A DNA stretch of 64,000 bases from Torpedo marmorata (taxonomy: Eukaryota): the NCBI GenBank assembly GCA_977017645.1, contig OZ360232.1:28458001-28522000 (forward strand), given 5' to 3'. The translations under genes were made by a program, and so were the position numbers. The notes below the pieces were generated by a model that was not told where the DNA came from, did not search any database, and saw only the letters and a program-made list of their open reading frames with translations. Positions 1,618 to 62,201 of the stretch are shown piece after piece; position 1 is the first letter of the stretch; the number at the start of each line of letters is the position of its first letter.

Positions 1618-3945
1618 GTGAAACACGATAGGCTGCAGACGCTGTGATTGTAGTAAACACACCGAACTGCTGGAGCAACTCAGCTGGTCTTTTCAGCATC
1701 TATAGGAGACAAAGATATATTGCCGATGTTTCGGGCCTGAGTCCTTCTTCAAGGAAAAATCAGAAAAGGCAGAAGCAGGATATATCAGAAAGTCTCAGAA
1801 TTTAAAAAATGGGGGAGGAATCCAGACAAACAAAAGGTGTTAATTGGATGTGATAAGGGACTAGGTAGAATTTATCATGTCTGTGCGAAAGGAAACAGGG
1901 AATGGAGAGACGATGGGGGAAGAAGGGAGCAGGGTTTTTTTTAACAAAAGCCAGAGAAGTCAATATTAATGCCATCCGGTTGGAGGGTGCCCAGTCAGAA
2001 GATGAGGTGTTGTTCTTTCAATTTACGGGTCGTCTCAGTCAGGCAGTACACGAGACCATGGATAGACATGTCGGCAAGGGAATGGGATGGAGAATTGAAA
2101 TGGGTGGCCACTGGGAGATTCACGCTATTGCGGCGGAAAGAGCCGAGGTGCTCAACAAAGTGATCTCCCAGTCTGCGCCCAGTCTCTCCGATGGAGAGGA
2201 GACCACAGCGGGAGAGCCGGATGCAGTAGATGATCTCTGCAGATTCACAAGTGAAATGTTGCTTCACATGGAAGGAATGCTTGGGGCCCTGAATGGTGCT
2301 GAGGGAGGAGGTGTGGGCGCAAGTGGAGCATCTCCTGTGGTCACAAGGGTAGGTCACAAGGGGACGATTGGTGGAGAGGGAGGAATGGACAAGGGAGTCA
2401 CGGAGGGAGCGGTCCCTGCAGAAGGCAGAAAGGGGAGGAGAGGGGAATATGTGTCTAGTGGTGGGATCACGTAGTAGGTGGTGCAAATGGCAGAGGAGGA
2501 TGTGTTGGATGCGGAGGCTGGTGGGGTGGTAGGTGAGGACAAGAAGAATCCTGTCCTTGTTGCGCATGGGGCGGAGGGAGCCACTGCAGATGTGAAGGTA
2601 ATGGAGGATATGCGGGTGAGTGGATGGTGGTAGAGGGAAAGCTACGTTGTTTGAAGAAGGAGGACATCTCTGATGATCTGGCATGGAAGTCCTCATCCCT
2701 GGTGCAGATGCGATGGAGATGGAGGAATTGAGAAAATGGAATGGAATCCTTACAAGGGATAGGGTGGGAAGAGGTGTAGTCGAGGGATCTGTGGGATTTG
2801 GTGGGTTTATAGAAGATGTCTGTCGAGAGTTTGTCTCCTGAGATAGAGATAGAGAGGTCGAGGAAAGGAAGAATGTTGCTAGAGATGGTCCGAGTGAATT
2901 TGAGGTCGGGGTGGAAGTTGGCAGCAAAGTGGGTGAAGTCAATGAGCTCATCATGGGTACATGAGGCAGCACCAAAATAGTCATCGATGTAGCAGAGGAA
3001 GAGTTGAGGGGCCTTGCCTCTGTAGGCTTGTAGCATGGATTGCTCCACGTAGCCACAAAAAGGCAGGCATAGCTGGGGCCCTTTAACCTGGAGAAAGTGC
3101 GATGAGTCAAAGGAGAAATTATTGAGGGTGAGGACAGGTTCTACCAGCCGGAGGAGGGTGGTGGTGGAGGGGGATTGGTTGGTTCTATTGTCCAGAAAGA
3201 ATCAAAGGGCTTTGAGGCCTTCAGTATGGGGAATGGAGGTTTATAGGGATTGGATATCCATGGTAAATATGAGGTGATCGAGTTCAGGGAACTGGAAGTT
3301 GTTGAAGTGATGGAGGGCGTGTGAAGTGTCCCGAATGTAGGTGGGGAGGGTCTGGACCAGGGGGGACAAAGCAGAGTCAAGGTAAGCGGAGACCAATTCG
3401 GTGAGGCAGGAGCACGCGGACACGATGGGTCTGCCGGGACAATTGGGTTTGTGGATCTTGGGTAGGAGGTAGAAACGGGCAGTACGGGGTTGGGAAACAA
3501 TAAGGTTGGAGGCTGTGCCTGGGAGATGACCAGAAGTGATGAGTTCAGAGATGGTGCGTGATACAGTGGTTTGATGAGTTTTGGTAGGGTCCTGTTGGAT
3601 GGGGTAAGTAAGAGGAGGTATCTGAGAGTTGTCGTCTGGCTTCGGCCAGATAGAGGTCAGTGCGTCAGACCACAACAGCGCCACCCTTGTCTGCAGGTTT
3701 GAGGGTGAGGTTCGGATTGGTGTGGAGAGAGTGCAGGGACAGGAGTTCCGAGGGGGTATGATTGGAATGAGTGAGGGGAGTAGTGAAGTCGATACAGTTG
3801 ATGTCACGGCGGCAGTTGGAAATATAAAGGTCCAGAGCAGGTAGAAGACCGGAATGAGGTGTCCAGGAGGAGGAAGACATTTTAAAGCAGGAGAAGGAAT
3901 CTGTAGTGGGGGATGGAGAATCGTGGTTATGGAAGGAAGTTCCGG
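1618..3945 (-). mobile_element. Penelope-like retroelement, 5'-truncated and frameshifted (RT + GIY-YIG endonuclease)
   Basis: ORF pieces contain KPADKGGAVVV, FYLLPKIHKPNCPGRPIVS, YIDD, LPFLD and IYCIRLSRCGLLSIGETGRRL. Terminal repeat at about 1618-1755. Confidence 0.92.
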
Positions 3946-5812
3946 AACCTGTACAAACAGAGCAGCCCAGCTCTGCTGGTAAGTTGCAGACTGAGGTTTG
4001 ATTTTGAACTCCACATAGAGTCCAGTGATGGAGCATAGATTCACTGCAGTTCCCCATCAGGTATGCTGGGTCATCCACCTTTGAATCCGTGCCAAGAATA
4101 ACAAATAGAATGTCTACAAAAGACAAAGATAACTAACAATTTCCAGAAAGAATTGTGTTTACTCATTTAAGTGTTCGTTCAGTGATTTATTTGAAATTAA
4201 TATTTAGCAATTTTAAATCTTTTTTTCAATAGTCAAGTGTATTCAGATGCATTCATAGTTCTGCATGACTTTGATAGGTGGCAAAGCTTGAGGTTATGGC
4301 TTCCCTGTTTGTCAACTTTGCCATTTTCGCAGTTGCTCATTGTTAGAACATAGAACAATACTTTTTGTAAATGAAATTTACTAATTCTAGGGTTTTTGTT
4401 CTTCCAAATAAAGGAAGAAACTTTTGAGTCAATATTATTAAAAAAAGATTTCAGAATGAAAACTGGAATTGCTTGAAATAAATATGAAAACTTAGGTAAT
4501 ATTATCATTTTAACTGCATTAATATGATCTTTAAGTAATTTTAACCCCCAAGTATGTGAAATTATCCCCAGCATTCTTAAATGGAACTTGAGTATAGATA
4601 GGGACCTGCATATTAATCGGAAAAAGTTCACTTTTATGAAGGTTTAATTTATATCCAGAGAAAGAGCTGAATCGAGAAAACACAGATAACATAACTGGGA
4701 TAGATATTTTGGGATCTGAAATATAAACTAATAAGTCATCTGCATACAAAGAAACTTTATGAGTTACTCCGTCTCTGACAATCCCTTGAACCTCATAAGA
4801 GTCTCTAAGGGCTATTGCCAGAGGTTCTAAAGCTAGATCAAATAGCAAGGGGCTAAGGGGACATCACTGTCTAGTTCCCCTAAACAACCTAAATGAGGAG
4901 GATTTGTTATTATTAGTAACTACCATAGCTAAGGGGGTACTATAGATCAATTTAATCCATGATATAAAACCCATACCAAAATTAAATCTCCTTAATGTTT
5001 CAAATAATTAGTTCCACTCCACTCTGTCAAAAGCCTTTTCTGCATCGAGAGAAACTACACATTCTGGAATTGTGTCCGAAGGGGAATAAATAATGTTCAT
5101 TAATCTACGGATGTTGAAATGTAAATATCGATTTTTAATAAATCCAGTCTGATCTTTAGATATATCAGAAGGAAGAATATTTCCAACCTGCCGGCGAGAA
5201 TCTTAGAAAGAACCTTAAAATCTACATTCAACAGAAACTGGCCTATAGGAAGTGCATTCAGTCAGATCTTTATCTTTTTTAGGAATCAGTGAAATTGATG
5301 CTTCTCAAAAAGTTGCCGGTAGGGTCCCAGAGAAAACTTAATTTTCAAATACTTTATATAGTTGAGGAGTAAGTAAGTTAGTAAATGATTTTAAAAATTA
5401 CACCGTAAAGCCATCCGGACCTGGGGCCTTGCCAGATTGAAGAGAAGATATAGCTTGGGAAAATTCCAACTCTGAAAATGGAGCTTCCAACAAGTTTTCA
5501 TCCTGATGATATTTTAGGAATATTCAGCCATTGTAAAAATTTATCCATTAAAATAGAATAATCAGGAAATTCAGATTTGTATAGACCTGAATAAAATTCC
5601 TGAATCATTTTATTAATTTCAGCATGATCAAAAGTTAAGTTTCCATCCTTCTTACGTATCTTTATGATTTGTCTTTCAGCTGCAGCTGCCTTCAGCTGAC
5701 CAGCCAACAGCTTACCTGATTTCTCTCCATGTACATAAAATTGAGATTTAAGATTAAGTAGTTGATTCTCGATGGGGTAAGTCATGCTGAGTTTGAAAAA
5801 AGATGGAGGTAT

Positions 5813-6798
5813 GTGCTTCTATTTGCTGCTCCAACTCAGTTATCTTCGATTGATATGGTGCTGGTGCTATCTTCGATTGAGAAGGTGCTGGCGCTACCTT
5901 CGATTGATAAGATGCTGGCGTTTCACAAGGCGCAGTAAGCAGTTGTTCCAGGTCCATTTGCTCCTGTTGACTAGGGGAAGAAGCCAATCCTTCTATCTTC
6001 AATGTAGAGGTCGTGGACATAACGAGGTCTGCATGATCCGCCAACTGATCGAGGGTGGACATTTGAAAGACACTCACCAAATGCTCTTGAACATGACGAG
6101 GTAAACATCGAAGGAACCTCTGTTTCCAAAAATCGCCTTCGACAGGATCTCTTCCAGCTAGCCTGCGCCACCTCCTCAACATCCATGATGGTTGCCTATG
6201 GCCTAGGCTGTCATTAGCTAGTAATTGGGCAATAAGAGTCTCCCTTGATGGCTGAGTACGCCGCAGAATAGCCGCCTTAAGCATGTCGTAAGGGAGATTA
6301 CCATCCTGATCCACTAAAACATCCTCCACTTTACAGGCAATCTGCTCTGGAAGATGCACCACACGTAAACCATACTTCATCTTCTGACTTGTCACACTAA
6401 GGGAAGAGAAATGCGCTTCGAGGATCATAAACCATGCTGGTGCATTATTAATAAAAAGGGGGGGAATCTTTAGTTTGACCTCCCCAACTTCTCCTGTAAG
6501 GGGTTTATCCTCATCACTATCCATTTTAAATAAAAGTACTGTGAACTCATGGGGTCACCACTTGTAACGGCACTGATTTGCCACAGCCTACAAAAAAATA
6601 AAGAATACACTCACTCGTTTCTTTCAGCACACCATGAAGTCGACTTTTTATTTATTATTCACTAGACACAACATTGCATTCTTCAACTCCCCAAACACCA
6701 CTCAGCTAATCTCCTCTGAACTCATTGGCTCACTGCCACACGAATGATTCTGACACTCTCACTCTCCTCCCGACGAAGGTAAGTACGCGGCCGCGACA
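5813..6798 (-). mobile_element. Truncated copy of Gypsy 'A': LTR 6563-6798, tRNA-Trp-type PBS, gag
   Basis: TG..CA LTR, PBS TGGTGACCCC at 6551-6560, gag ORF from 6524 (VKLKIPPLFINNAPAWF). Homologous to 16563-18445. Confidence 0.9.
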
Positions 6799-6831
6799 AT
6801 AGGATGCTCGTGGTTGCTACAAATATGAGTG

Positions 6832-7278
6832 TGTTATTATGCGTGTAAATAAAAACTACATTTCCCAGCATGCAATGCGCGGGGTTGGGCAGAAACCGGA
6901 AGGACATATGACGGAAGTCGGTTGAAGCAGCTCACGGAAAATAAAGTCGGTTAAGTGTTAAACCCAATAAAAATCTTTCTTCTTGAAAGAACAAGCATAA
7001 CATGGTGTCAGAAGTGTCTGAGTGAGTAAGATAAGACAATAGTTCATAAGCATGGATAAGTTAAGTCCTCCCACACCGATGCAGTTTACCAGCAATCTAG
7101 CTGATAATTGGAAATGCTTAAAACATCAATTCAAAATTTATTTAGTAGCTGGTGGAATGGGAGAGACCGATGGAAAACGGAAAGCGTCTATGTTTCTACA
7201 CATGATGGGTGAAGATGCCTTGGATATCTATAACAGTTTTCAAATTGATGAGACAGCATTCAAGTTGGACACTCTGAT
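6832..7278 (+). mobile_element. Truncated copy of Gypsy 'B' 5' end: LTR 6832-7002, PBS, start of gag
   Basis: TGTTAT..ATAACA LTR, PBS TGGTGTCAGAAGTG 7003-7016, ORF MDKLSPPTPMQFTSNLADNWK from 7052. Confidence 0.9.
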
Positions 7279-8641
7279 AGGAATATATCTAATCCAATAC
7301 TCAAACATACATTACAAATCTGGTTCCAATTTAGGAAATTTTTTAATTTAAAAAACGTTGTCTTATCTCGTGCTATCTTTCATAACTATTTTGTTCGACC
7401 ATTAATAACTGATAAATTTTTCTCTATATGGAAAATCAAAGGTATTGTTTCTTTAGCAAATTTATTTAAGGAAGGTTGCTTACTGTCTTTTGAACATCTT
7501 GCAAGTAAATATGATTTATCAAATACTCATCTTTTTAGATATTTACAGGTTAGAAATTTCTTAAATATCATATTACGGGATTTTCCATTTATATATCCAT
7601 CAGATTTAGTTGATAATATTTTTCAATTGAATCCTTCTCAGAAAGAATTGGAATTATATATGATAGATTATTAAAATTACGTCCAGTACTTCATGATAAA
7701 ATTAAAAAGGCTTGGGAACTGGAACTTGCAAGACCCTTATCTGAGAATCTATGGGACAAGATTTTTAAATTGGTAAATACATCTTCAATATGTGCCCGAC
7801 ATTCATTAATCCAATTCAAAGTGGTGCATCATGTTCACATGTCCAAAGGTAAATTGGCTAGTATTTTTTTCTAATATTAACCCTATTTGTGACAGATGCA
7901 AATCTGAAATTGCTACATTGACACATATGTTTTGGTCTTGTTCATCCTTAGAAAACTATTGGAAAGAAATTTTTAATATCTTTTCAACTATACTCCAGAT
8001 GGAGCTACGACCCAATCCAATAACTGCTCTTTTCGGGGTTATTGACCCAGACATAGGGAGTTTTTCTGTACCTGTTCGACGTGTTGTGGCCTTCTCTACA
8101 TTGTTGGCTAGAAGAGCCATCCTATTCAAATGGAAAGACTCCAGACCACCAACAGTGTTTCAATGGTTTTCTCATATTATGTCTTGTTTAAGTTTAGAAA
8201 AAATTAGATATCATGTATTTGATTCATCAGTGAAATTTGAAGATACATGGCGACCTTTTATGTCTTATTTTCATATGATGTAAGTGTTTCTGATGTGATT
8301 AGATGTATTTACTCTTCCTTTGTTTTTTGATTTACAGTAGGAACCAAACATTACAAAATAGGTATAACCTTCAGGATAAGCTGCTCAGCTGTTTTTTGTT
8401 AGTTGTTTTTTTTTATGAGAGTAGGTTAGGTGGGTTTTTTTAATCTATATAATACTTTTGATGGGTTTTTTTCATTGTCACCCATTGCAGTGAAGGGGGA
8501 TCAAATTTATACAGTTTGAAGTTTTATTTTAATACAGGTATATATACATATGTGATATTGTATTTTCAATTTCATTCCCTGTTCTTCATTGTATTGCATT
8601 TCTTATAAAAATCAATAAAAATGATTGAAAAAGAAAGAAAT

Positions 8642-11600
8642 AACAATACAGCACAGTACAAACCCTTCGGCCCTCGATGTTGTGCCAACCCATATATCCC
8701 TAAAAAAAAAGTACTAAACCCACCCTACCCCGTAACCCTCCATTTTTCCTTCATCCATGTGCCTGTCTAAGAGTCTCTTAAATGTCCCTAATGTTTCAGC
8801 CTCCACCACCATCCCCGGCAAGGCATTCCAGGCACCCACAACTCTCTGTGTAAAAAACTTACCCCTGATGTCTCCCCTAAACATCCCTCCCTTAACTTTG
8901 TACATATGTCCTCTGCTGTTTGCCATTCCTGCCCTGGGAAACAGGCGCTGGCTGTCCACCCTATATATGACTCTCATAATCTTGTAGACCTCTATGAAGC
9001 CTCCTCTCATACTTCTATGCTCCAAAGAGAAAACTCCCAGCTCTGTTAACCTTGCCTCATAAAACTTGTTTTCCAATCCAGGCAACAGCCTGGTAAATCT
9101 CCTCTGCACCCTCTCTATAGCTTCCACATCCTTCCCTTAATGAGGTGACCAGAACTGAACACAATGTTGCAAATGTGGTCTCACCAGAGATTTGTAGAGT
9201 TGCAACATGACCTCTCTACTCCTGAACTCAATCCCCCTATTAATGAAGCTCAGCATCCCATATGCCTTCTTAACTATCCTATCAACCTGTGCGGCGACCT
9301 TGAGGGATGCATGGATTTGAATCCAAAGGTCCATCTGTACATACACACTCTTAAGTAACTGACCATTAACCCTGTACTCAGCCTTCTGGTTTGTCCTTCC
9401 AAAATGCATCACCTCACACTTATCCAGATTGAAATCCATCTGCCACTTTTCTGCCCAACTCTGCATCCTGTCTATCTCCTCTTGTAACCTTCGACAACCT
9501 TCAGCTCCATCGACAACTCCTCCTTCGTGTCATCCGCAAACTTGCTGACCCATCCTTCCGCCTCTTCGTCCACGTCATTTATAAAAATCACAAAGAGCAG
9601 GGGTCCCAGAACAGATCCCTGCAGCACTCCACTAGTCACCGACCTCCAGGCAGAATATTTTCCTTCCACTAATACTCTCTGCTTTTTTCCTTCAAGCCAA
9701 TTTTTTATCCACACAGCCAAGGTTCCACTGATCCCGTGCCTCATGACTTTCTGGATGAGTCTCTCATGGGGGACCTTGTCAAATGCCTTGCTAAAATCCA
9801 TGTAGACCATATCTATCACCCTACCCTCATCAATTTCTTTTGTTACCTCCTCAAAAAAACTCAATTAGGCTTGTGAGGCACGACCTTCACTTCACAAAGC
9901 CATTCTGACTATCCTTCTGTACTTCTCCAAATGCTCATAGATCCTCTCCTTAAGAATCCTCTCCAATAGTTTGCACACCATAGATGTTAGACTCACCGGT
10001 CTATAATTCCCAGGATTCTCTCTATTACCTTTTTTAAACAAGGGGACTACATTTGCCATTCTCCAATCCTCCGGCACATCCCCTGTGCCAAAGTGGATTC
10101 AAAGATCATCACTACTGCCCCAGCTATCTCTTCTCTCACTTCCCACAGCAACCTGGGGTATATTGCGTCCGGCACCGAGGACCTATCAATCTTGATGTTT
10201 CTAAGAAGATCCAATACTTCCTCTTCCTTAATCTCCACATTGTCCAGCACATAGGCCTGTTCTATTCCGACCTTATCCTGATCAAGCTCTTTTTCTTTTG
10301 TGAATACTGAAGCAAAGTATTCGTTTAGGACCTCCCCAACCTCCTTCGCCTCCAGGCACATTACACCTCCTTTATCCTTTTGCGGCCCCACCCTCATTCC
10401 CGTCATCCTTCTGTTCCTCACATACGCATAGAACGCCTTGGGGTTCTCCTTAATCCTACATGCCAAGGCCTTCTCATGCCCCCTTCAAGCTTTCCTAAGT
10501 CCTTTCTTAAGCTCCTTCCTGGCAACCATATATTTCTCATGAGGCCTTCCAGTTTCCTGCTTCCTATATCTAACATATGCTTCTTTCTTCCACTTGACTA
10601 GTTGCCTCACCTGTTTTATCAGCCACGGTTCCCTTTTCCTACCATCTTTTCCTTGTCCCAGTTGGACAAACCTATCCTGAACCCAGCACAAGTGGTCCCT
10701 AAACTTCCTTCACATTACTTCCGTGCTTTCACCCTTGAACATCTGTTTCCAATTTACTTTTGCTAGTTCCTGCCTCATCCCTTCGTAACTAGCCCTTCCC
10801 CAGTTAAGCACTTTCTTATTATGTCTGTTTTTATCCTTTTCCATAGCTATCCTGAAGCTAATGGAGTTGTGGTCACTCTCACCAAAATGCTCCCCCACCG
10901 AGAGGTCCGCCACCTGACTAGATTCATTACCCAGAACTAGATCTAGTATGGCCTCTCCTCTCATCGGCCGGTCCACACACTGTGTCAGGAATCCTTCTTG
11001 AACACACCTGACAAATTCAGCCCCATCTATCCCTCTTGCAGTCAAGAGGTGCCAGTCAATATTAGGGAAGTTGAAATCTCCCATAACTACAACCCTATAT
11101 TTCCTGCACCATTCCAAGATCTGACTGATTATCTGCTCCTCGGTGTCCCGAGGGCTATTTGGGGGCCTATAGACTACTCCCAGAACAGTGATAGCTCCCT
11201 TCCTATTTCTGACTTCCACTCACACCGACTCAGTGGACACTCCCTCTGCAGCGTCCTCCCTTTCTATAGCTGTGATACTATCCCTGACCAGTAATGATAC
11301 TCTGCCCCCTTTTCTACCTCCCATCCTATTCCTTTTAAAACACCTAAACACCTGCATCAGCCAATCCTGCCCAACCTCCAGCCAAGTTTCTGTAACGGCC
11401 ACAACATCATAGTTCTACGTACTGATCCATGTTCTAAGTTCATCCCCTTTATTCCTAATACTCCTCGCATTGAAATAGACACATTTCAACCCCCCTAACT
11501 TGCTACATTTATGTTTTGTCCCCTGCCTGTTCTTCATCACTAACTCAGAACACATAGCTTCATGCTTTTGTCCTTCTACCCTAATCTCTGCACTCACATT

Positions 11601-11645
11601 CTGATTCCCATCCCCCTGCCAAACTAGTTTAAACCCTCCTCAACA
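8642..11645 (-). mobile_element. CR1 LINE (APE endonuclease + RT), decayed; end of tail displaced to 4346-4361
   Basis: YFNARSI, VVMGDFNFP, GNYRPVSLTS, DFSKAFDKV, KFADDTK, FTQRVVGAWNALP motifs; CR1-type 3' tail. Confidence 0.93.
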
Positions 11646-11908
11646 GCTTGTTCTTTCAAGAAGAACAACTTTATGTGGGTTCACTTAACCAAATTTATTT
11701 TCCTTGTTGAGCTGCTTCAACCAACTTCCAACCAACTCCTGTCATATGTCCTTCCGGTTTCCGCCCAACCGTGCGCATTGCATGCTGGGAAATGTAGTTC
11801 TTATTTACACGCATAATAACATATCTTTCCACTTTAAAACAAAAACAAAAACACAAACAATACTATGTCTACATAACAAAAGTATCTACATTTCGTGGTC
11901 AGTCTCTT

Positions 11909-12654
11909 TCCAACAGTTGCATCTGATGACTTCTGGCTTCACAAAGTCGTTCAAGTTCATTCAGGGCATCCGCAAGATTCAGCTGAAGTTCAGAAATCCG
12001 TGAAGAGGTTCCTGTTTATCAGCAAGTTCACGAACAGTCTCCATCAGCTGTTGATTTTGCTGTAGCAGTTCTTCAACATTACGATAGATCACCAGATGCT
12101 GAGAAATCACTTCAGAGGAACTGCTTATGTCAGCAGAACTAACTTCATCTTCTCGTAAAATATCATGTCCTCGCGCATCTTCTAGTTCCATCAAAAGCAC
12201 CCTATTCTGCTGTGAAAGATTTGACACTTACATTTTGTATCTCTGATTCTCCCTGTTGAGTAATGAAGCATGCTTATTCGCCTCATCAGTGCATTTTTGT
12301 AAACGGCATATTTCCTTCATGGCATCTTCTAATTTAGCTGAGAGATTTGCCACAGATTTTTGCACACGTTCATATTCTTCACACTGGCGCTTCAGAAACG
12401 GAGCTTTCATCTCCACTTCTTTCACAATTTCATCCAAATATTTATTCACTCTCTTTTTTGCTGTTTGCCAATAGCGATTGATCTTGAGCTTCAACATATC
12501 CATTATACAACTCTGTGAGCTTCATTCCAGGCTTCACAATCTTGGCCACAGCTGCTGCAGTGGGCGACATAGCTGCCAGTTCCTCTTCTGATAGTGTGGC
12601 GGCTCCTTTAAGCTTTGTAGTTGAAAGAAGATGGTTTGCATTTTCCTATTCCTT
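11909..12654 (-). pseudogene. TPR: Intronless internal CDS fragment of TPR (nuclear basket coiled-coil protein), disabled
   Basis: Translates to [115 protein letters not shown], recognised as the TPR N-terminal coiled coil. Contains stops and frameshifts. Confidence 0.95.
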
Positions 12655-12996
12655 ATCATGAAGAGACTCTAAAGTTGTTTTCTTAAGAGTTCAGATTCTT
12701 GTATTGATATATTCTTATCCTCTAATGCAGCCATTCTTTCTTTTAGATGCAGCTGAAGTCTATCATTAGAGTCAAGCTGAGTCTCTAACTATCTGAAACG
12801 TTCTTCTATGCTGCCATGCCACTCTTCAGCCTTTGTCAGAGCAGTAATTCGCTGGGCAAGTTCAGCTTCTACTTCTGGTAACGTTTCTGCTCGCTTCATT
12901 GTTTGCTGCAGTTTCTGTTCAGCCAGTTCCAGACGTTCCTGTAACTAACTATTTTTGTTTTCTAGCTGGCATAAGAAGGCATCCTTATTTCCCAAG
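12649..12996 (-). pseudogene. PPFIA2: Intronless internal CDS fragment of a liprin-alpha (PPFIA2/PPFIA4-like) coiled coil, disabled
   Basis: Translates to [74 protein letters not shown]. Paralogue assignment is tentative; not present in the ORF track. Confidence 0.88.
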
Positions 12997-13505: not shown

Positions 13506-14424
13506 GAGCCTTCTTTGTGATTGCATCAACGTGGATGCTCCAGGACAGATCCTCGGAGATGTTGACACCCAGGAATTTGAAGTTCTTGAGCCTCTCCATG
13601 ACTGAGCCCTCGATAAGGACTGGGTCGTGTTCCCCTGACTTCCTCCTGAAGTCCACAATCATCTCCTTGGTTTTGCTGACATTGAGCTCAAGGTTATTGC
13701 CATTACACCATTCAACGAGCTGATCTATCTCCCTCCTGTACGCTTCCTCATTGCCGTTTGTGATTCTGCCGACAATTGTGGTGTCATCGGCAAACTTGTA
13801 GATGGCATTGGAATTGTGCCTGGCCACACAGTCATGGGTGTATAACGAGTAGAGCAGTGGACTAAGCACGCATCCTTGGGGTGCGCCTGTGTTGATAATC
13901 AGTGAGGAGGAGACGTTGTTTCCAATTCGTACTGACTGTGGTCTTCCGATGAGAAAGTCAAGGATCCAGTTGCAGAGGGGAGTACAGAGGCCTAGAGTTT
14001 GTAGTTTCTTGACCAGCATTGAGGGAATAATGGTATTGAAGGCCGAGCTGTAGTCGATGAAGAGCAGCCGTATGTATGAATTGCTGTTTTCGAGGTGATC
14101 CAGAGCTGAGTGGAGAGCCAGCGATATTGCATCTGCTGTGGAGCGATTGTGACGATAGGTGAATTGCAGTGGGTCCAGATCTTTGCTTAGGTATGTGTTA
14201 ATTCTGGCCATGACCAGCCTCTCAAAGCATTTCATCACAGTAGAAGTTAGTGCTACTGGGCAGTAGTCGTTGAGGCAGCCCACACTACTCTTCTTGGGTA
14301 CCGGGATGATTGATGCCCTTTTGAAGCAGGTGGGAACCTCTGACTGCCGCAATGAGAGGTTGAAAATGTCCGTGAACACTCCGGCTAGTTGGTTGGCGCA
14401 GATTTTCAGTACCCTGCCAGGTAC
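13506..14424 (-). mobile_element. Rex1/Babar-like LINE RT fragment
   Basis: [43 protein letters not shown] motifs; near-identical to 22420-23255. Confidence 0.88.
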
Positions 14425-14503
14425 GCAATGTGTAAGTGTGCTGAGTGCCTTCTGTCTGCGACTCCCGCGAAGTTTAAATGGCCCGTTCTCTGGCTGTTTA
14501 AAC

Positions 14504-14590
14504 TCCCGCGGTGTTGTTGTAGTACTTGCGTGAGCTGTTTAAAGGTCCCGCGGTGTTGTTGTAGTACTTGCGTGAGCTGTTTAAAGGTCC
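14504..14590. repeat. Perfect 42-bp tandem duplication within an unassigned CpG-containing segment (14428-14618)
   Basis: TCCCGCGGTGTTGTTGTAGTACTTGCGTGAGCTGTTTAAAGG x2. Confidence 0.9.
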
Positions 14591-15051
14591 TGCGGCCCGA
14601 CGGAGACTACCTCTTCTACCATACAGCCCCCTTTTACTGGAACGTTCTCTCCAGTGTAGCCTGTCACTTTTAATTTCACAGGATAAATGTTGCTCTTCAC
14701 GGTGAGGGTCTTCTAATTGTCCATAGATAACAGATTCATCTGGGCTCCAGTGTCAAACTTAAATGGAATTACTGTCTCATTCACAGTCACTGGAACGATC
14801 CATTCCGTTTTGACAGCATCAGTCTGAAGTGAATCCACGAAGAATTCTTCTATTTCTTCGTCCACTGTGTGCACCTTTCTTTTGTTATCCCCTGCTTTGC
14901 AGCACTTTGAAAAATGATTCTTCTTCCCACATTTATAGCAGGACTTTCCACAGGCAGGACACATCTTTGGAATATGTCTACCTCAGCACCTGTTGCATTT
15001 GCTGTTTGAGCTTACCACTTTGCTTTGTTGTTGCTTTGGGAAACTCCCGGT

Positions 15052-15714
15052 CCAGTCCTCATCGAGGGCTCAGTAGTGGAGAGGGTCAAGAACTTCAAAT
15101 TCCTGGGTGTCAACATCTCCGAGGTTCTGTCCTGGAGCATCCACGTTGATGCAATCACAAAGAAGGCTCGTCAGCGGCTATACTTTGTGAAGTGTCTGCG
15201 GAGATTCGGTATGTCAGCGAAGACTCTCATAAACTTCTACAGGTGTACCGTGGAGAGCATTCTGGCTGGTTGCATCACTGCCTGGTATGGAGGCACCAAC
15301 TCTCAGGACAAGAGTAAACTCCAGAAGGTTGTTAACTCGGCCTGTGACATCACAGGCACCAAACTTCACTCCATCGAGGACATCTACATGAGGCGGTGTC
15401 TTAAAAAAGCAGCCTCTATCCTCAAAGACTCCCACCACCCAGGCCATGCCCTCTGCTTCCATCGGGAAAAAGGTACAGGAGCCTAAAGACGAGCACTCAA
15501 CGGCACAAGGACAGCTTCTTCCCAGCTGCAATCAGATTCCTGAATAATCAATGAACCAAAGACACTGCCTTACTTTTCATGCACTATTATTTATAATTTT
15601 TTATAGTAATGTCGTAAGATGGTTAATATGAATGTTAATTGCACTATGATGCTGCCGCAAAACACCGAATTTCATGACTTGTTCATGACAATAAATTCTG
15701 ATTCTGATCTGATT
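15052..15714 (+). mobile_element. Rex1-like LINE 3' fragment inserted in Gypsy B gag
   Basis: [19 protein letters not shown] motif, (TTCTGA)n tail, possible TSD CTCCYGGT. Confidence 0.85.
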
Positions 15715-16775
15715 CTCCTGGTGCTCTGCTTATCTGTTTTCATCGCATGCACTGTTGTGTCTATCTTGTGCAGCTCCTTAGCTTGTGGTCGTGTGGTCTC
15801 TGCTGTCTTACACAAATTCACAGCCTTTTCCAGAGTCAAATCTTTTTCATGCAACAGTCTTTCTCTAAGTCCATTATCTGGGATTCCGCAAACTATTCTG
15901 TCTTTTATGAGTGATTTTTTCAAATCTCCAAATTCACAGGACTTACTCAGTGTGTGAAGCTCTGCTAAGTATTGGTCAAAGCCACTTACCTTGTTTCTGG
16001 TCACAGGAGAGAAACTTGAATCTCTCAAATGTGACGTTTTTACTTGGAACAAAATAATCCTCAAATTTTGTCATCAGAGTGTCCAACGTGAAAGCTGTCT
16101 CATCAATTTCAAAATTGTTATAGATATCCAAGGCATCTTCACCCATCACGTGCAGAAACATAGATGCTTTCCGTTTTCCATCGGTCTCTCCCATTCCACC
16201 ACTACTAAATAAATTTTGAATCGCTGTTTTAAGCATTTCCAATTATCAGCTAGATTGCCGGTAAATTGCATCGCTGTGGGAGGACTTAACTTATCCATGC
16301 TTACAAACTATTGTCTTATCTTACTCACTCAGACACTTCTGACACCATGTTATGCTTGTTCTTTCAAGATGAACGATTTTTCGTGGGTTTAACACTTAAC
16401 CGACTTTATTTTCCTTGAGCTGCTTCCACCGACTTCCAACCGACTCCCGTCATATGTCCTTCCGGTTTCCGCCCAACCGCATGCATTGCATGCTGGGAAA
16501 TGTAGTTCTTAATTACACACATAGTAACACACTCATATTTGTAGCAACCACGAACATCCTATTGTGGCGGTTGCATACCTACCTTCGTCGGGAGGAGAGT
16601 GAGAGTGTCAGGATCACTTGTGTGGCAGTGAGCCAATGAGAAGGTCAGAGGAGTTTAGCTGAGTGGTGTTTGGGGAGTTGAAGAATGCCATGTTTTGTCT
16701 AGTGAATAATGAAAAAAAGTCGACTTTATGGTGTGCTGAAAGAAATGAGTGAGTGTATCCTTTATCTTTTTGTAG

Positions 16776-17717
16776 TGTTACAAATTCAAACCAGCAACGA
16801 CAGAAGACGCAATGCAAAAGGGGTAAAATTGAAATTTATATTTATTAAATACAATTAAACATATAATTTCACAACAATTAACCCCACTATAAACATCTAT
16901 AAACACTATTCTTATCTAAAAGGTGTGTATGTGTGTGTGTAAAGCCCAGACCATTACAGTCTGTGCCCAAACCTCATGTAAAAATGGAAAAACTTTCCCC
17001 AAAAACCCAAGGTCAGTCATAAAAACAAGTCAGTCAAAAAAAAATAATACAGTCCACAAAAATTCACTCTCTAAGTTCAGGTTCCAAATTCAGCTCTGTG
17101 TGCTGGTAGAAGGACTTCTTAATGAACGTTGGAGAGAGACAATGACTGTTTATGCTTACGAATACTTGGCTTGCTTTTCTTCTCTGATGATGTTCCCTTT
17201 TTGTGTTTTCATAAGGATTGCGAATTCAGATCCGTTTTGGATGAAGGCATATACTTGGATTTCACAGCCGGTTCCTCACAAAAGCTGTTCTCACAACTCA
17301 GGATTCTGCCGAATCATCAGGCCTTGTTTTTCTCCCAGCCTTTTTCCTGGGATGCACAAGCCTGGACTTTTCTGATTCAAGAGACTCTGTGCAATTCTCC
17401 CCATTTCTTCTCTGGGATGCACAGGCCTGGATCCTACTGAGTTCTCCCGCCTTTTCACTCCAAAACTGCTACTGAGTTAATTTCCACTTTAGGCCTTACA
17501 ATAGAGAGAGAGAGTTTCTCTCCAGCCTGTTTCGTCCAAAGTTTTTTTCCAAGTGTGCTTTTCACAGTTTGTCTCCCCCTGATGTCTCTCTCTGGTAAAT
17601 ACAAGAAGTCCTGAGCAAGTTAACTCTTTCAGTACCAGGTCCCAGTGTATACTCCAAAAGACTTCATCCTTCCTGCTTACCGTCCGCAGTCCAAATTGTC
17701 AGTCATGGTCCATAACA
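16776..17717. mobile_element. Solo LTR (~940 bp) inserted in the 5' LTR of Gypsy A
   Basis: TGTTA...TAACA termini and exact TSD GTAG (16772-16775, 17718-17721); absent from the other two LTR-A copies. Confidence 0.88.
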
Positions 17718-17785
17718 GTAGGCTGTGACAAATCAGTGCCGTTACAAGTGGTGACCCCGTGAGTTCACAGTACCTCTCATTTAAA

Positions 17786-18646
17786 ATGGATAGTGATGAG
17801 GATAAACCCCTTACAGGAGCAGTTGGGGAGGTCAAACTAAAGATTCTTCCCCTTTTTATTAATAATGTACCAGCATGGTTCATGATCCTCGAAGTGCATT
17901 TCTCTGCCCTCAGTGTGATGAGTCAGAAGATGAAGTATGGTTTGCTTGTGGCGCATCTTCCAGAGCATATTGCCTGTGAAGTGGAGGATGTCTTAGTGGA
18001 TCAGGATGGTAATCTCCCTTACGACATGCTTAAGGCGGCTATTCTGCGGCGTACTCAGCCATCTAGGGAGACTCTTATTGCCCAATTACTAGCTGATGAC
18101 AGCCTAGGCCATAGGCAACCGTCACAGATGTTGAGGAGGTGGTGCAGGCAAGCTGGAACAGACCCTGTCGAAGGCAATTTTTGGAAACAAAGGTTCCTTC
18201 GATGTTTACCTCGTCATGTTCAAGAGCATTCGGTGAGTGTCTTTCAAATGTCCACCCTCGATCAGTTGGCAGATCATGACAACCTCGTTATGTCCACGAG
18301 CTCTGCATTGAAGATAGAAGGATTGGCTTCTTCCCCGAGTCAACAGGAGCAAATGGAACTGGAACAACTGCTTACTGCGCCTTGTGAAACGCCAGCAACT
18401 TATCAATCGAAGATAACTGAGTTGGAGCAGCAAATGGAAGCACTGACTATGCAGGTCCAGGCTTTGGGCACGTAACGGAATTCCTTCTGTCGACCTGGTT
18501 GGAATCGTGGTGGTCGAGGACGTGGTGGAGGCGACGAGCGGCGTATTTGTTGGAAGCATCGGAGATTTGGTGCTGCTGCCTGGTCCTGTCAGCCACCTTG
18601 CGACTTCTACAAATGGCAGCCGGATAACGACCAGGTACAGCAGTAG
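17786..18646 (+). pseudogene. gag: Gypsy gag with a single premature stop (18473-18475) and C-terminal zinc knuckle
   Basis: The frame continues past the TAA into RGGRGRGGG..CWKHRRFGAAAWSCQPPCDF to a TAG ending at 18646. Confidence 0.85.
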
Positions 18647-20363
18647 AGGCAACTACTGCCATCGATTTCACCACCATGGCTCGTGCACAGCACACTGATC
18701 CCGATCTCATCTGGTATCGCCGGATGCTGATGCTGTTCGCAAACCACTTCAGCCCGTTTACGATGGTCCTTTTCAGGTCTTGAGATGCCACCCGAAGACC
18801 TTTGTGATCGACAGGAATGGAAAAGCTGACACAGTTTCCATCGACAGGTTGAAGCCAGCATATATCGACGATCCATGTTCTGCGTCGAAGCCAGAGTCAG
18901 AGGGCCAGTCGCACCCTTGCCAGTCGGACCGTGCATCGCCTGTCTTGCACTATCGTATGAGGTCAGGCCAAACTGTCAGCCCTCCGGACCGTTATGTAGT
19001 AGGACAGTTCCAATCGGTCGCCTCCTTGCGTGGCTTGGAGGCTGAGGGGGAGGTTGTCGCGGTCGCGTACTTACCTTCGTCGGGAGGAGAGTGAGAATGT
19101 CAGGATCACCCGTGTGCCAGTGAGCCAATGAGAAGGTCAGAGCAGTTTAGCTGGGTGGTGTTTGGGGAGTTGAAGAATGCAATGTTGTGTCAAGTGAATA
19201 ACAAAAAAGAAAAGTCGACTTCATGGTGTGCTGAAAGAAACGGGTGAGTGTATTCTTTATTTGTTTGTAGGCTGTGGCAAATCAGTGCTGTTACACTGTC
19301 TCTGTTCTGGCCCATTTTATGTTCTGACATTTATTTTGCAGACAAATCATACAAAAAATGGTAATTTACTGCATTTTGATACAAATAAAATAAATAACAA
19401 CCATTACATTTTTTTTTATCGTAGCCTGTGTTACTGTGGGTACAAAAAATTGACGGGCATCATTAGAGTTAGGCTTGGCACAGTGAACTTATTCAAATTC
19501 TGTTGCATCCTTTTCAGAAGTTAGAAGTTAATAATGTGCAAATGCAACAAATGTAAAGGATCAGAAAGAATCTTGAAATCAAGTTTTAGTGAGGAATGTA
19601 TAATAACTGTATATAAGAGCAAAACAGGCCTGACGAGAGTGAAGTGATCAACAAAACCATCATCCTAAAGGAAAAAGCCTTCCGTTGTTATCTGTCACTG
19701 TTTGAAAGATCAAACATTATGGTGACATTTGTAGTAATGCCTTTTTCTCACCAGAGTAAAATGAAGAGTTTGTCAAGAACAAAGAAAAAAATGCATATTT
19801 AATAGCGATTTCACTGAGGGTGGAATTATTTTGGGTAAATGATGAGCTGACAACACTTCAAACGTTCACATGGTAAGTTTGCTATGACTCCAAGAGGCAG
19901 CAACTGATTCTGTCTGCAATTCTTCAGAGTACAAATTGTCAAATTTCAGATTATATTCTGGGGGTGGTCAGGGAAGTTGTGTGGGAGGTGGGGAGGATAG
20001 GGTGGAATAGAGGAGGAAAAGTTGCTGGTTTAAGGGTTGGTGTGCGCAGTGTGGGTGTTGGAAAAAGAGGAATGTAAAAAGAAACATCTTCCGATTTAGA
20101 ATTGAGGAGGAGGAAATATGTCAAAAGAAACAGACTGAGGATTTGGTGATTTATACAAAGTAAATTGAAAAGATCAGCCCTAAAACATGTTAAATATTGG
20201 CAGCAGGAATAAGTTCAGAAGGTGATAATGAGTGGACAATCTTCAGCCGTCAGACCTGTTTTACTCGTTTACAGGATATGTCACCAACAATCCTGCCATT
20301 TTTTGTTCATACTTAATTGATGTTAAACTGAGGAAACAGTTAAGAGTCAATCATACTGGCAAT

Positions 20364-20567: not shown

Positions 20568-20813
20568 GTGAAACACGGAAGTCTGCAGACGCTGTGATTG
20601 AAGTAAAACCACACAGTAAGTGTTGGAGGAACTCAGCTGGTCTCGCAGCGCCCATAGGAGGTAAAGATATTACCGATGTTTCGTACCTGAGCCCTTCTTC
20701 AGGTATCAGGACCTTGAAGAAGGGCTCTGTCCCGAAACTTTGGTAATAAATTTTTACCTCCTTTGGACACTGCAAGACCGGCTGAGTTCCTCCAGCATTA
20801 ACTGTGTGCTTTT
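20568..20813. mobile_element. Palindromic Penelope terminal-repeat insertion
   Basis: Two inverted copies of the PLE terminal repeat; 14-bp TSD ACATTAGCAGTGAT (20554-20567, 20814-20827). Confidence 0.88.
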
Positions 20814-21426
20814 ACATTAGCAGTGATATTCAGTTATTTTAAACCAGCAGTCAAAGATGAGTTAAACTCCTGCAGAATTTTAGAAAGAGAGTTTAAAATG
20901 TTATGTATTAATTTTACAAGCCATTCTGCCACATGGAATGGCTGATGACATTAGTGCGGGATTGTAGCAATATATGCAGTGTTTCACTCTGCTGTTTGAT
21001 GGGTGACACAAGGATTTATTATTGCATTTTATTTTACAACCTCTTAGGCTTGGTTCCCACTTATTGCTTCAGGATATGTATATGAGGCATCATACAACCA
21101 AAATGGTCACTCTTGGCCAACGTGTATTTCGAACATCCACACTATAAAAGGGAATACTGGATGAGATATAGTTTATCCATTGAATAAAACACTTTTTTTC
21201 ATGACATCTGTTATTATTATATTGATGATGCTTCAGGATATTGTTTTGTTAGAGTTATTATTCATTTCTATAATTATGAAGTAATATATATGTTTATTTT
21301 TTAAAATATTTTATTTAAAATTTTAAATCACTCGATAATACATATAATAAAATGCAAAATTATCAAAGTACGTGATATATTTTCACCCCCCTCCCTCCCT
21401 CCCCTCCCTAACCCTCCCACCCCTAC

Positions 21427-21595
21427 NNNNNNNNNNNNNNNNNNNNNNNNNNNNNNNNNNNNNNNNNNNNNNNNNNNNNNNNNNNNNNNNNNNNNNNNNN
21501 NNNNNNNNNNNNNNNNNNNNNNNNNNNNNNNNNNNNNNNNNNNNNNNNNNNNNNNNNNNNNNNNNNNNNNNNNNNNNNNNNNNNNNNNNNNNNNN
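21427..21595. other. Assembly gap (N run)
   Basis: Run of n characters. Confidence 1.
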
Positions 21596-21859
21596 AATCT
21601 AAAAAAGAACAACTATAAGCTAATTTTATTGTTGAACATAGGTTCGCCAGTCAGATCTGATATCCAGAGATCTTCAAATCCTTAAACCGACAATTTGTAT
21701 ATATGGGCTCCATATTTTCAAAAAGAAATGATACTTGTTACGTAAATTATAAGTAATTTTTTCAAGTGGTATAGCTGAACAAAGTTCTGCATGCCATCTC
21801 TCTAACCCTAAATCTACATCAGACTTCCATGTAATAGCAATGCATTTCTTAGAAACAGC

Positions 21860-23255
21860 TCAGAATCAGAATCAGAATCAGAATTTTATTGTCATGAACA
21901 AGTCATGAAATTCGGTGTTTTGCGGCAGCATCATAGTGCAATTAACATTCATATTAACCATCTAACGACATTACTATAAAAGATTATAAACAATAGTGCA
22001 CGAAAAGTAAGGCAGTGTCTGGTTCATTGATTATTCAGGAATATGATGGCAGCGGGGAAGAAGCTGACCTTGTGCCGTTGAGTGCTCGTCTTTAGGCTCC
22101 TGTACCTTTTTCCCGATGGAAGCAGTGAAGAGGGCATGGGCTGGGTGGTGGGGGTCTTTGAGGATAGAGGCTGCTTTTTTAAGACACCGCCTCATGTAGA
22201 TGTCCTCGATGGAGTGAAGCTTGGTGCCTGTGATGTCACAGGCCGAGTTAACAACCCTCTGGAGTTTGCTCTTGTCCTGGGAGTTGGCGCCTCCATACCA
22301 GGCAGTGATGCAACCAGCCAGAATGCTCTCCACGGTACACCTGTAGAAGTTTACGAGAGTCTTTGGTGACATACCAAATCTCCACAGACACCTCACAAAG
22401 TATAGCCGCTGACGAGCCTTCTTTGTGATTGCATCAACGTAGATGCTCCAGGACAGATCCTCGGAGATGTTGACACCCAGGAATTTGAAGTTCTTGACCC
22501 TCTCCATGACTGAGCCCTCGATGAGGACTGGGTCGTGTTCCCCTGACTTCCTCCTGAAGTCCACAATCATCTCCTTGGTTTTGCTGATGTTGAGCTCAAG
22601 GCTGTTGCCATTACACCATTCAACGAGCTGATCTATCTCCCTCCTGTATGCTTCCTCATTGCTGTTTGTGATTCTGCTGACAACTGTGGTGTCATCGGCA
22701 AACTTGTAGATGGCATTGGAATTGCGCCTGGCCACACAGTCATGGGTGTATAACGAGTAGAGCAGTGGACTAAGCACGCATCCTTGGGGTGCGCCTGTGT
22801 TGATAATCAGTGAGGAGGAGACGTTGTTTCCAATTCGTACTGACTGTGGTCTTCCGATGAGAAAGTCAAGGATCCAGTTGCAGAGTGGGGTACAGAGGCC
22901 TAGAGTTTGTAGTTTCTTGACCAGCACTGAGGGAATAATGGTATTGAAGGCCGAGCTGTAGTCGATGAAGAGCAGCCGTATGTATGAATTACTGTTTTCG
23001 AGGTGATCCAGAGCTGAGTGGAGAGCCAGCGATATTGCATCTGCTGTGGAGCGATTGTGGCGATAGGCGAATTGCAGTGGGTCCAGATCTTTGCTTAGGT
23101 ATGTGTTAATTCTGGCCATGACCAGCCTCTCAAAGCATTTCATCACAGTAGAAGTTAGTGCTACTGGGCGGTAGTCGTTGAGGCAGCCCACACTACTCTT
23201 CTTGGGTACTGGGATGATTGATGCCGTTTTGAAGCAGGTGGGAACCTCTGACTGC
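21860..23255 (-). mobile_element. Rex1/Babar-like LINE 3' portion with open RT frame
   Basis: 386-aa ORF 22031-23191 with RT motifs; (TTCTGA)n tail. Confidence 0.92.
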
Positions 23256-26200
23256 TTCTATTTGATACATATTTAATTTCATCTTAATACAAATTCTTTT
23301 AATATCTCCAAACAGAAATATCATAGGATCCATTGGGAGTGTAATTCTTAATACTTTGTCTAAAGACTTTTTAACTTTAAACCAAAAATCATATATCTTT
23401 GGACAAAGCTATGTAGAGTGTACAAAAGAACCTTCCTCTCTATTACATCTAAAACATAAACCTGATAATGTCGGATTAAATTTCTTTAAATTCTTAGGTG
23501 TTAAATATAATTGATGTAAAAAATTATATTGCACCAACCTATATCTATCATTAATAATCTTCGCCATACTTTGTTTACATATTTCTTTCCAATGTTCCTC
23601 ATCTATCGTAACATTCAAATCTGATTCCCATTTTAATCTTGATTTATGAATTCCTAATTTAGGCATTTTCCTCTGTAACAATCTATACATTTGAGAAATA
23701 AATTTATTTACACCTCCATTGGTAACTAATAATTCCAATTCACTTTGTCTTGGTAAAGTCAAACTATAACCCAACCTTTCAACTAATAATGCTCTAATCT
23801 GATAATAAGCAAAAAGTGTATTATTTAATACATTAAACTTCTCTTTCATTCTTTGAAAAGTAATAAATTTACTAGCTTCAAAACAATCATTTATTTTCTT
23901 AATTCCTTTTTGGAACCAAATTTTAAATAATTGATTATCAATAGTAAATGGAATAAGTTTATTTTGATATAAAGGCATTTTTCGAGAAATTAACCCTTTC
24001 CCTCCTATCTCCCTATCCACTCTATTCCATATTTCTATCAAATGTTTTAAAATAGGAGAGCTTTTACCTCCTCTTAAAAATAATTTAGAATTCCATTTAT
24101 AAATACCTTTTTCTTTCAAATCTTCTCCTATATTATTTAGTTCTATTCTAATCCAAGCAGAAGATTTTCCTAAATCAAACATTTCATTAATAAATTTTAA
24201 TTGAGTTGCTTTATAATAATTTTGAAAATTGGGAAGTTGTAAACCACCCATTTCGTAATCACAGGTTAATTTCTCCATACCTACTCTAGCCAACTTTCCT
24301 TTCCACAAAAATTTCCTAATAATTAAATTTAAATCTTTAAAGAATTTTTGAGGAATTTCATAAGGAATTGATTGAAAAAGAATCAGAATTTCGGTGTTTT
24401 CGGTGTTTTACGTCTGCATCATAGTGCAAGATATTGAATTCTTGGAAAAACATTCATTTTTATACAATTTACCCTTCCTATTAAAGTTATACGTAAATCC
24501 GTCCAACTTTCTAAATCTTTTTTAATATTCATAAATAATGGTAAATAATGTAATTGATATAAATTAGCTAATTTTGTATCTGTTTTTATTCCCAAATATT
24601 TAATTCCATCATTTAACCATTTATATCGTATAATTTCTTTACATTTATAATCTCCTTGTGTCAATGCCATAATTTCACTTTTATCAGAATTAATCTTATA
24701 ACCAGATATTTCCCCATATTCTCTCAATAAAACATTCAGTTGTGTTAAAGAAGTAATAGGTTTTGTCATGTAAATCAATACATCATCTGCAAATAAACTA
24801 ATTTTTTGTTCTTCTTTTCCAACTTTAATACCTACAATCTTAATATCTTGTCTAATTAATTCTGCTAAAGGTTCTATTGCTAAAATAAACAATGCTGGCG
24901 ACAAAGAGCATCCTTGTCTAGTTGACCTCGTCAACAAAAATTTTGAAGAAATTTGTCCATTTGTCACCACTCTGGCAGAGGGTTCTTTATATATAGTTTT
25001 AATCCAATTAATAAATGTAGTTCCAAAACCAAATTTTTACAACACTTTAAATAAATAATTCCACTCTAATCTATCAAAAGCCTTTTCAGCATCTTATGTT
25101 AATACTAATGCTAATTCTTCTTTCTTTTGTGCCACATTTATTAAACTAATTAATCTGGCTATATTATCTTATAAATATCTATTCTTAATAAAACCTGCTT
25201 GATCTACATGGATTAAATCTGGTAAATATTTAGCCACTCTATTTGCTAAAATTTTTGCCATTATCTTATAATCCACATTTAGCAATGAAATTGGTCTATA
25301 TAATTCTGTTTTCAACAAATCTCTATCTTTTTTAGGTATAACTGTTATTATTGCATTTGAAAATGTTTCCGGTAGAGAATGAGTTTCCGTTATTTGTTTT
25401 AACACCTCCATATATGTAGGTATCAATAAATCCTTAAATTCCTTATAAAATTCTGGTGGGAAACCATCCTCCCCCGGAGATTTTCCACTTGTTAAAGAAC
25501 TACGAACACCATTAACTTCTCTCATGGTAAACGATGAATCTAAAAGTTCTTTACTTTGAATATTTAATCTAGGAAACTTAATTTTAGATAAAAATTCATT
25601 AATTTTAGAATCATCTTTATCAGTTTGAGATTTGTATAAATTTGAATAAAATTCCTTAAAAGAATCATTTATTTCTCAAGGTTTATATGTTATTTTCTTT
25701 GAATTCTTTTTTATAGCACGTATAGTTCTAGAAGTTTGTTCTTTCTTTAATTGCCAGTAATTTTATTAAGTAATATTGAAGTTTCTAGAGACATAAGAAA
25801 ATTACTTTAAAGATGTCACTGTTGTTATTGGGAGAAATTCCCCTCAGTGCATCTTCAGGCAAGAACCTTGAGTCTGGCCCCAAAACTGGGGCCTTGTCTT
25901 ATTACCATTATTATTGCAACCTGCAGGAAACATAACAAGCAGCTTGCCCATTGTACAAAGATGAAAGTCAGGCTGCTTGTTTGAGCAGCAGTTGTCTAGG
26001 GGTGAATTGTAGGGGTGGGCAGGGAAATAGCAAAGGAGCCAATCACGGGCAGGAACCGCCTTCAGGAATGCTGCAGAGCCAGTGGATGCAATCCTGTTCC
26101 TCTGGGCTCAACATCAATCTGAAAACAAGAAGAATTCAGCCTTGATAAGGATCATTATCCTGACCACATCCCTGCCTGAGAAACCCAGTGAGAGAAGGCT

Positions 26201-41454: not shown

Positions 41455-41603
41455 GCAAGATATAGGAGCAGAACTAGGCCAATCGGCGATCGAGTCTGCC
41501 ATTCTATCATAAGCTGTTCCAACCTCTCACTCAGCCCCACTTCCCTGCCTTCTCCCCGGAACCCTTGATACCCTGACTAATCAAATACCTGTCAATCTCT
41601 GCC
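41455..41603 (-). mobile_element. CR1 3' end fragment
   Basis: Reverse complement resembles 33755-33905. Confidence 0.65.
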
Positions 41604-55845: not shown

Positions 55846-55929
55846 AAAAACTGAAATTTCCTTCTTAGGTAAACCTTGCTGCTGCGCTAACATTGCAGAG
55901 ATTTCATTTTGTCTTGCTATAAGCGATAT

Positions 55930-62121: not shown

Positions 62122-62201
62122 TAATGACCTGTCCATCAGAGCTGGCTGAGAGAGACCAGAGTTTCAATGCAGGGGATCCTTGGCTGAGAGAGCATATGGA
62201 C

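Follow-up and report, generated by a model that had tools for sequence, protein, structure and literature searches.

The 64,000-nucleotide (nt) window analysed here comes from Torpedo marmorata (contig OZ360232.1, positions 28,458,001 to 28,522,000); it is dense in transposons, has a GC content of 41% and holds one gap of 169 Ns. Towards its left end a retrotransposon of the L1 type, a long interspersed nuclear element (LINE), lies in the tail of a CR1-type LINE, and this insertion encloses a 1,466-bp segment of non-L1 DNA, the filler, which is an inverted copy of a neighbouring locus where two elements with long terminal repeats (LTRs), A and B, are separated by a 33-bp spacer (Table 1). The L1 cut the CR1 tail with an 8-nt stagger, its two arms lie in the layout of twin priming, and the source of the filler stayed in place. 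Under a single target-site duplication (TSD), the insert reads from left to right as an inverted arm of L1 open reading frame 2 (ORF2), the filler and a sense arm, with the filler exactly between the two arms. We consider it likely that the filler was copied in the course of the twin-primed insertion, as one event, from a template of either DNA or RNA.

The TSD, AACAATAC, is the sole exact match of at least 6 nt between the two boundary zones, which bears out the initial annotation of one duplication around the whole insert. It coincides with the joint between the tail and the body of the CR1 element, which occurs once per element and both halves of which are uninterrupted in a second CR1 copy (~48600), and 9 of 20,000 random 12-nt windows have an 8-mer in common with the left boundary. 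The one-per-element joint and this random rate rule out that the duplication is a chance product of the CR1 tail repeat, again in line with the initial reading.

The left TSD is abutted by the 3'-most end of the inverted arm (amino acid (aa) 870 of the ORF2 protein, ORF2p, at 4362). This arm has a Pfam RVT_1 match at 4534-4863 (E 1.4e-11), 5 stops, 4 frameshifts and a deletion of its own of ~96 nt near 4530. The sense arm, matched on the plus strand at 7291-8280 (aa 940-1270) in tblastn searches with four full-length ORF2p, has 0 stops and 2 frameshifts, and its tail to 8641 is A-rich, not pure poly(A). One TSD, an inverted arm with its 3' end at the 5' TSD, and a sense arm with the 3' end and an A-rich tail are the features of twin-primed, 5'-inverted L1 insertions, which are said to have been described by Ostertag and Kazazian in 2001. 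The inverted ORF2 segment had originally been drawn from 4362 to 5812; this stands for 4362-5797 and fails for 5799-5812, ~14 nt that are neither L1 nor source and for which we found no local source and no other match in the window at fewer than two mismatches. Nor are the two arms near-consecutive, as had been proposed: they follow one another on a single RNA, but 194 nt (~65 aa) between them are deleted, a larger loss than usual, as gauged on the related L1 copy at 54 kb. Both arms match P0001 and the 54-kb copy (DNA 68.7% and 64.9%) better than they match the copies at 23 kb or 62 kb, and their similarity indicates one subclade, at the level of subclade only and not of one family. The nearest named relatives of the ORF2p are teleost proteins at 48-50% identity; one search for closer relatives gave 9 matches among 102 candidates at 43-50% identity, and another gave none among 99.

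Table 1. Features of the L1 insertion, the source of its filler and the other L1 copies in the window.
Feature	Position	Strand	Remarks
Left TSD AACAATAC	4354..4361	+	inside 3' tail of CR1-type LINE
Inverted L1 arm, ORF2p aa 357-870 (reverse transcriptase)	4362..5797	-	tblastn with 4 full-length ORF2p: 5797->4362
~14 nt at L1/filler junction, neither L1 nor source	5799..5812	.	without microhomology with source continuation
Filler: 5' part of gag B (DUF7041)	5813..6524	-	27-bp unit x3 at 5841-5920
Filler: 5' LTR of element B, without solo LTR	6563..6798	-	
Filler: 33-bp inter-LTR spacer	6799..6831	.	copy of 16530-16562, 1 mismatch
Filler: 5' LTR of element A, then motif like a primer-binding site at 7003	6832..7002	+	
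Filler: first 75 codons of putative gag A	7052..7278	+	no Pfam match
Sense L1 arm: ORF2p aa ~936-1270 (stop 8281-8283), 3' untranslated region (UTR), AATAAA, A-rich tail	7279..8641	+	
Right TSD AACAATAC	8642..8649	+	
Host CR1-type LINE, its tail the L1 target	8650..11646	-	itself inserted near end of element A's 3' LTR
Filler source	16073..18443	+	putative gag A (minus), LTR A 16348-16529, spacer 16530-16562, LTR B 16563-17746, gag B from 17786
Solo LTR, 942 bp, TGTTA...TAACA, TSD GTAG	16776..17717	.	within source's LTR B
Element B 3' LTR, after purine tract	19055..19295	+	B flanked by CTAT / CTGT, likely 4-bp TSD
Fourth L1	~21288-25767		plainly truncated; 9-bp TSD
Second 5'-inverted L1	54058-55845 (with TSDs 54043-55860)		inverted ORF2 aa 790-1267, then sense 3' UTR and tail; 15-bp TSD
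Third 5'-inverted L1	~62202-63794 (with TSDs 62187-63809)		different subclade; 15-bp TSD

Self-comparison of the window, a check proposed with the initial annotation, recovers 5813-7278 as the reverse complement of 16073-18443 minus 16776-17717 plus one GTAG, and so confirms, within slightly narrower limits, an inverted copy of about 16070-18445 that is without the later solo LTR. The copy reads, in order, gag B, LTR B, the spacer, LTR A, a motif (at 7003) that we take to be a primer-binding site, and gag A. Filler and source differ at 88 of 1,410 columns, with 6 indels (6.2%), and the differences are uniform along the length (ten bins, P = 0.61); the filler is 54 nt longer, with a 27-bp unit present three times in its gag B and once in the source. 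Within gag, the differences fall on the three codon positions as 13/16/21 (P = 0.38), and 16 of 50 are synonymous, where 13.3 are expected (P = 0.23), a near-neutral pattern as expected for the duplication of a dead copy. Since the divergence is even, near-neutral and as high as 6.2%, the filler is, judged by its sequence, an old duplication and not an assembly slip. We give next to no credence to an assembly artefact: the one N gap (21427-21595), which might be taken to favour it, lies outside both copies, and neither the evenly spread divergence with its indels nor a solo LTR that has its own TSD and stands in one copy only agrees with such an origin. The filler shows no sign of function; it is transposon debris, inert, that was duplicated locally and in inverted orientation, and the self-comparison showed no other kilobase-scale local duplication of a multi-element junction in the window.

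A scan of the window for the spacer, allowing up to 10 mismatches, finds it at two places only (0 and 1 mismatches), and at the source it lies outside the 5' LTRs of both elements. Because it belongs to neither element and B has a likely TSD at the source, it is the locus that was copied and not the elements, which upholds the initial choice of one copying over two independent LTR insertions. The direction is fixed, from source to filler, since at the source full elements extend beyond the copied stretch to the left and to the right. The solo LTR is missing from the filler and also from the 3' LTR of element B, and for this reason it must have entered the source after the copying. We ruled out that it is an intron, which would mark an RNA intermediate, as its ends are TG...CA, it is flanked by a 4-bp TSD and neither strand offers a GT-AG register. 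No spliced-out segment or poly(A) was seen in the filler and, because it crosses two divergent 5' LTRs without such a mark, the filler is neither element's own transcript.

The absence of these marks also bears on the nature of the template. Within a single event, ORF2p could have switched templates, leaving the L1 RNA for unspliced read-through RNA from the neighbouring locus (from a host intron or by LTR read-through), or a cDNA (complementary DNA) of such an RNA could have been ligated between the ends. There are reports of inserts made from two RNAs and of extra reverse-transcribed pieces where the two arms meet (PMC11702581 section 7, Fig. S7), and either polarity of the transcript would be workable, by way of one primer or the other. 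We nevertheless regard an RNA template as rather unlikely, since it requires a transcript that runs over both divergent 5' LTRs, starts and stops in the middle of a gag and bears no trace of splicing or polyadenylation; moreover, no host gene was identified, as five candidate exon readings at three places in 19.9 kb of unmasked DNA include none that is convincing.

Elements A and B, which we take to be of the Ty3/Gypsy type, have TG...CA LTR pairs, a putative primer-binding site, a purine tract and a gag-like ORF. Element B (16563-19295) is a short, non-autonomous LTR element with a gag and a weak remnant similar to an integrase SH3 domain; no reverse transcriptase (RT) was found in A or B, in either copy, and no homologue of gag B among 827 candidates. 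The name gag A is putative and was given from its position together with sequence resembling a zinc knuckle and a protease at 14540-15050. The CR1 apparently inserted into the 3' LTR of element A, ~5 bp before its end (4341-4345, 11645-11821), which places the L1 and its filler inside element A; the order of nesting is element A, then the CR1 in the 3' LTR of A, then the L1 in the CR1 tail.

Pairwise divergences are 9.8% for the LTR pair of A, 9.9% for that of B, 9.6% for the CR1 pair, 6.2% for filler and source, and 2.5-4.2% for the Rex1-like pairs, so that the ages are nested. Together, the two L1 arms have 5 stops in 2,376 sites, where 2.9 are expected at 3.1% decay and 4.5 at 4.8% (P 0.17-0.46); as this load fits the divergence of filler and source, one age for the L1 and the filler is allowed. 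Three gag segments, all but the source copy of gag A, entered the count and have 0 stops, with 2.0 expected (P = 0.14). Three-way counts of LTR changes over 395 sites are star-like (filler 13, local 5' LTRs 19, 3' LTRs 18), so the copy was made soon after the insertion of A and B; being star-like, the counts are uninformative as proof of local descent, and we rejected them as such.

The same counts, which do not single out the local copy, leave some room for a paralogue elsewhere as the source of the filler, whether by 5' transduction from a truncated L1 in gag B or through a composite A-spacer-B unit that moves whole. The ratio of nonsynonymous to synonymous differences (pN/pS 0.5-0.6) would allow slight past selection, although the synonymous excess is not significant. 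We judge this origin very unlikely, given that the spacer lies outside both elements, that B has its TSD here, and that a distant origin would make the proximity of 7 kb a coincidence; in addition, no L1 is found at either breakpoint of the local source (16073, 18443). The initial annotation had offered a 5' transduction from an L1 inside gag A, which was mis-specified: a single RNA could yield both only if the filler ran on without a break into the inverted arm, and the L1 would therefore need to sit in gag B.

On balance we lean towards one complex L1 insertion with a filler made from a DNA template, the first cDNA having folded back onto the resected chromosome arm to which it was joined. 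The distance from source to insertion is 7,424 bp now and ~5,700 bp without two younger Rex1-like pieces. The first, tail-primed cDNA would be the minus strand, covalently attached to the right chromosome arm, which holds the source. On this strand, the filler is the plus strand of the source; it begins at the near end, 16073, and heads away from the break, which fits a fold-back on the same arm after 5' resection. The tail-primed cDNA would have left the L1 RNA ~194 nt short of the second priming site, its end would have annealed to the resected arm at 16073, and it would have been extended by 1.47 kb on DNA before coming off. The released end would then have been joined to the second cDNA by end-joining, with the addition of ~14 nt, and fill-in would have restored the flank with the TSD kept; the source later acquired its solo LTR. 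Fold-back, resection and fill-in are steps that we infer.

The proposal, already present in the initial annotation, of local templating during L1 integration thus finds support in the geometry of twin priming and in compatible ages, while its timing stands less firmly, since a later deletion plus insertion over the junction gives the same layout. In that case an ordinary 5'-inverted L1 would have come first, and a later break would have been repaired with a locally templated insert, with loss of the original inversion junction. Such a sequence of two events would account for the 194-nt gap and for stops that are somewhat above expectation in the inverted arm and absent from the gag copies, and inverted duplications do arise without L1 (PMC12350158). 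It would, however, require the insert to fall across the junction (an exact hit is 0.7% in 2,814 nt, more if several hundred nt were deleted); the junction has no hairpin that would make it fragile, the two L1 arms having no common reverse-complement word of at least 12 nt, and the combined stop load of both arms fits the age of the filler. We therefore hold two events to be a poor prospect, and copying at the time of L1 integration to be favoured but not proven.

Several observations weigh against this preference for a DNA template copied during integration. The sequence of the insert does not discriminate between a template of DNA and one of RNA, and microhomology at 7278/7279 is not readable without a family consensus, with the best L1 relatives at 50% identity. 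All 5 stops lie in the inverted arm, where 1.6 are expected at 3.1% decay (P = 0.022), and none in the sense arm. The star-like LTR counts give no shared changes that tie the filler to the local 5' LTRs, and LTR B of the filler is slightly nearer to the 3' LTR (15/211) than to the 5' LTR (17/210). The TSD is short, 8 bp compared with 15 bp in the two other inverted copies. The gap between the arms, 194 nt, would also be explained by a later deletion, and it exceeds the median of 14.5 bp for internal deletions of human L1 in tumours (bioRxiv 10.1101/2024.08.27.596794). In the same tumour data, 22 templated insertions among 3,598 are typically shorter than 250 bp and lie within 15 bp, and the inverted duplications in print come from small hairpins at the break (bioRxiv 10.1101/2024.12.14.628481).

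The insertion is not the only inverted L1 in the window. Based on rows from four full-length proteins at an identity of at least 24%, with CR1- and Rex1-like matches set aside and with the count confined to copies with recognisable ORF2 (AT-rich fragments without ORF2 left out), three of four L1 copies, from two subclades, are 5'-inverted. The TSD of the 54-kb copy duplicates the residues EISVF of an interrupted BEL-like gag ORF (DUF1759), and in the 62-kb copy the arms overlap by ~10 nt, with primer microhomology visible. This suggests that 5' inversion is common in this fish-like genome. We would extend this only tentatively, and with some doubt, to the idea that L1 insertion in a non-mammalian lineage proceeds to a large extent by twin priming, that its intermediates undergo kilobase-scale resection and fold-back, and that L1 thereby gives rise to local inverted segmental duplications in the germline. 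If true, a process studied mainly in human cells and tumours extends to a deep vertebrate branch.

Other features of the window concern element A and its surroundings. At 11902-12996 (minus), between the protease region and the purine tract, element A carries coding pieces of liprin-alpha (PF25526, E 8e-20) and of nucleoporin TPR (PF25785, E 2e-18), which lie between the LTRs in the element's sense and both have stops and frameshifts. In the liprin-alpha piece, 18 of 20 residues match liprin-alpha-2 of PDB 8z22; a PDB search with the 97-aa TPR-like piece gave one weak match to a designed protein, which is uninformative. In this the interior is similar to the LTR-mediated retrocopies from two genes described in PMC5131818. 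On either side of the gag-protease of element A stands a young Rex1-like piece (13506-14538, 15052-15716); the two are oppositely oriented and have an overlap of 118 bp. We ruled out that they form another inversion with a filler of its own, as what lies between them is the gag-protease of element A in its normal position and a separate near-TSD belongs to the right piece, and we read them as separate insertions.

CR1-, Rex1-, Penelope-, Gypsy- and BEL-like elements occur together in the window, clade labels that are our assumption, and an Rfam search of it gave 0 matches. An element at 1995-4056 (minus), presumably a Penelope, has RT- and GIY-YIG-like translations, with no Pfam match for 1998-3140. 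Also present are a 213-bp palindrome of pieces similar to short interspersed nuclear elements (20603-20815), a 47-bp inverted pair ~0.9 kb apart (40841-41799), a 49-bp direct pair flanking a Rex1-like element (36150-38254), and a pair of repeats 80% identical (27602-28070 and 44148-45048), the second of which is split by a young Rex1-like insertion.

The insertion is a fossil of how two twin-primed cDNA ends get joined. If our reading holds, the intermediate persists through kilobases of resection and DNA-templated synthesis with the TSD retained, and this would be one route to small inverted segmental duplications with intact flanks. We found no published description of a local copy of kilobase size within an inversion junction, nor of frequent 5' inversion in fish-like genomes, in a literature coverage that was partial and does not establish absence from print. 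In cell assays, 5' inversion is described with human L1 in human cells, besides one Nimb-2 insert in chicken cells, and no such inversion was observed when human L1 was assayed in chicken DT40 cells (PMC4245944).

The insertion shares with published 5'-inverted L1 insertions its one TSD, the order of its arms, the tail and an internal deletion (PMC2912911, bioRxiv 10.1101/2024.08.27.596794), and differs from them in the 1.47 kb of non-L1 DNA in the junction, the 194-nt gap, the 8-bp TSD and the non-mammalian host; among human L1 copies, short TSDs are rarer in inverted than in truncated ones (PMC2912911). Chimeras of L1 with other RNAs likewise have non-L1 sequence under one TSD, and opposite orientations in them are taken as twin priming, but there a known RNA lies at the 5' end, whereas here unspliced neighbouring DNA lies between two arms (PMC13174262, PMC4476161). 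At L1 breaks, resection and self-annealing lead to inverted duplications, with remodelling on the primary RT end too (bioRxiv 10.1101/2024.12.14.628481 section 9), and among L1 clones obtained by experiment there are additional RT products at the internal junction, pieces templated by genomic DNA, and inverted duplications that derive from resected ends (PMC11702581). The inversions at ORF2p breaks resemble the filler in that an inverted copy adjoins the L1 by resection and self-annealing (bioRxiv 10.1101/2024.12.14.628481; PMC11702581 Figs S7, S9, S10), and in one published case twin priming occurs together with widely separated arms and a genomic inversion (bioRxiv 10.1101/2024.12.14.628481; PMC11702581). 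Those inversions, however, arise beside the break, from small hairpins and mostly at the reciprocal end, while the filler lies between two cDNAs and comes from kilobases away. As in the templated insertions of tumours, a non-L1 genomic segment has been copied into the insert and thereby duplicated, and the filler duplicates nearby DNA that is still in place; unlike them, it is 1,466 bp long, comes from ~5.7-7.4 kb away, is inverted, sits inside the inversion junction and is old. Templated inserts in L1 are thus already known, and what is unusual here is the size, distance and position of the insert together with a non-mammalian germline host.

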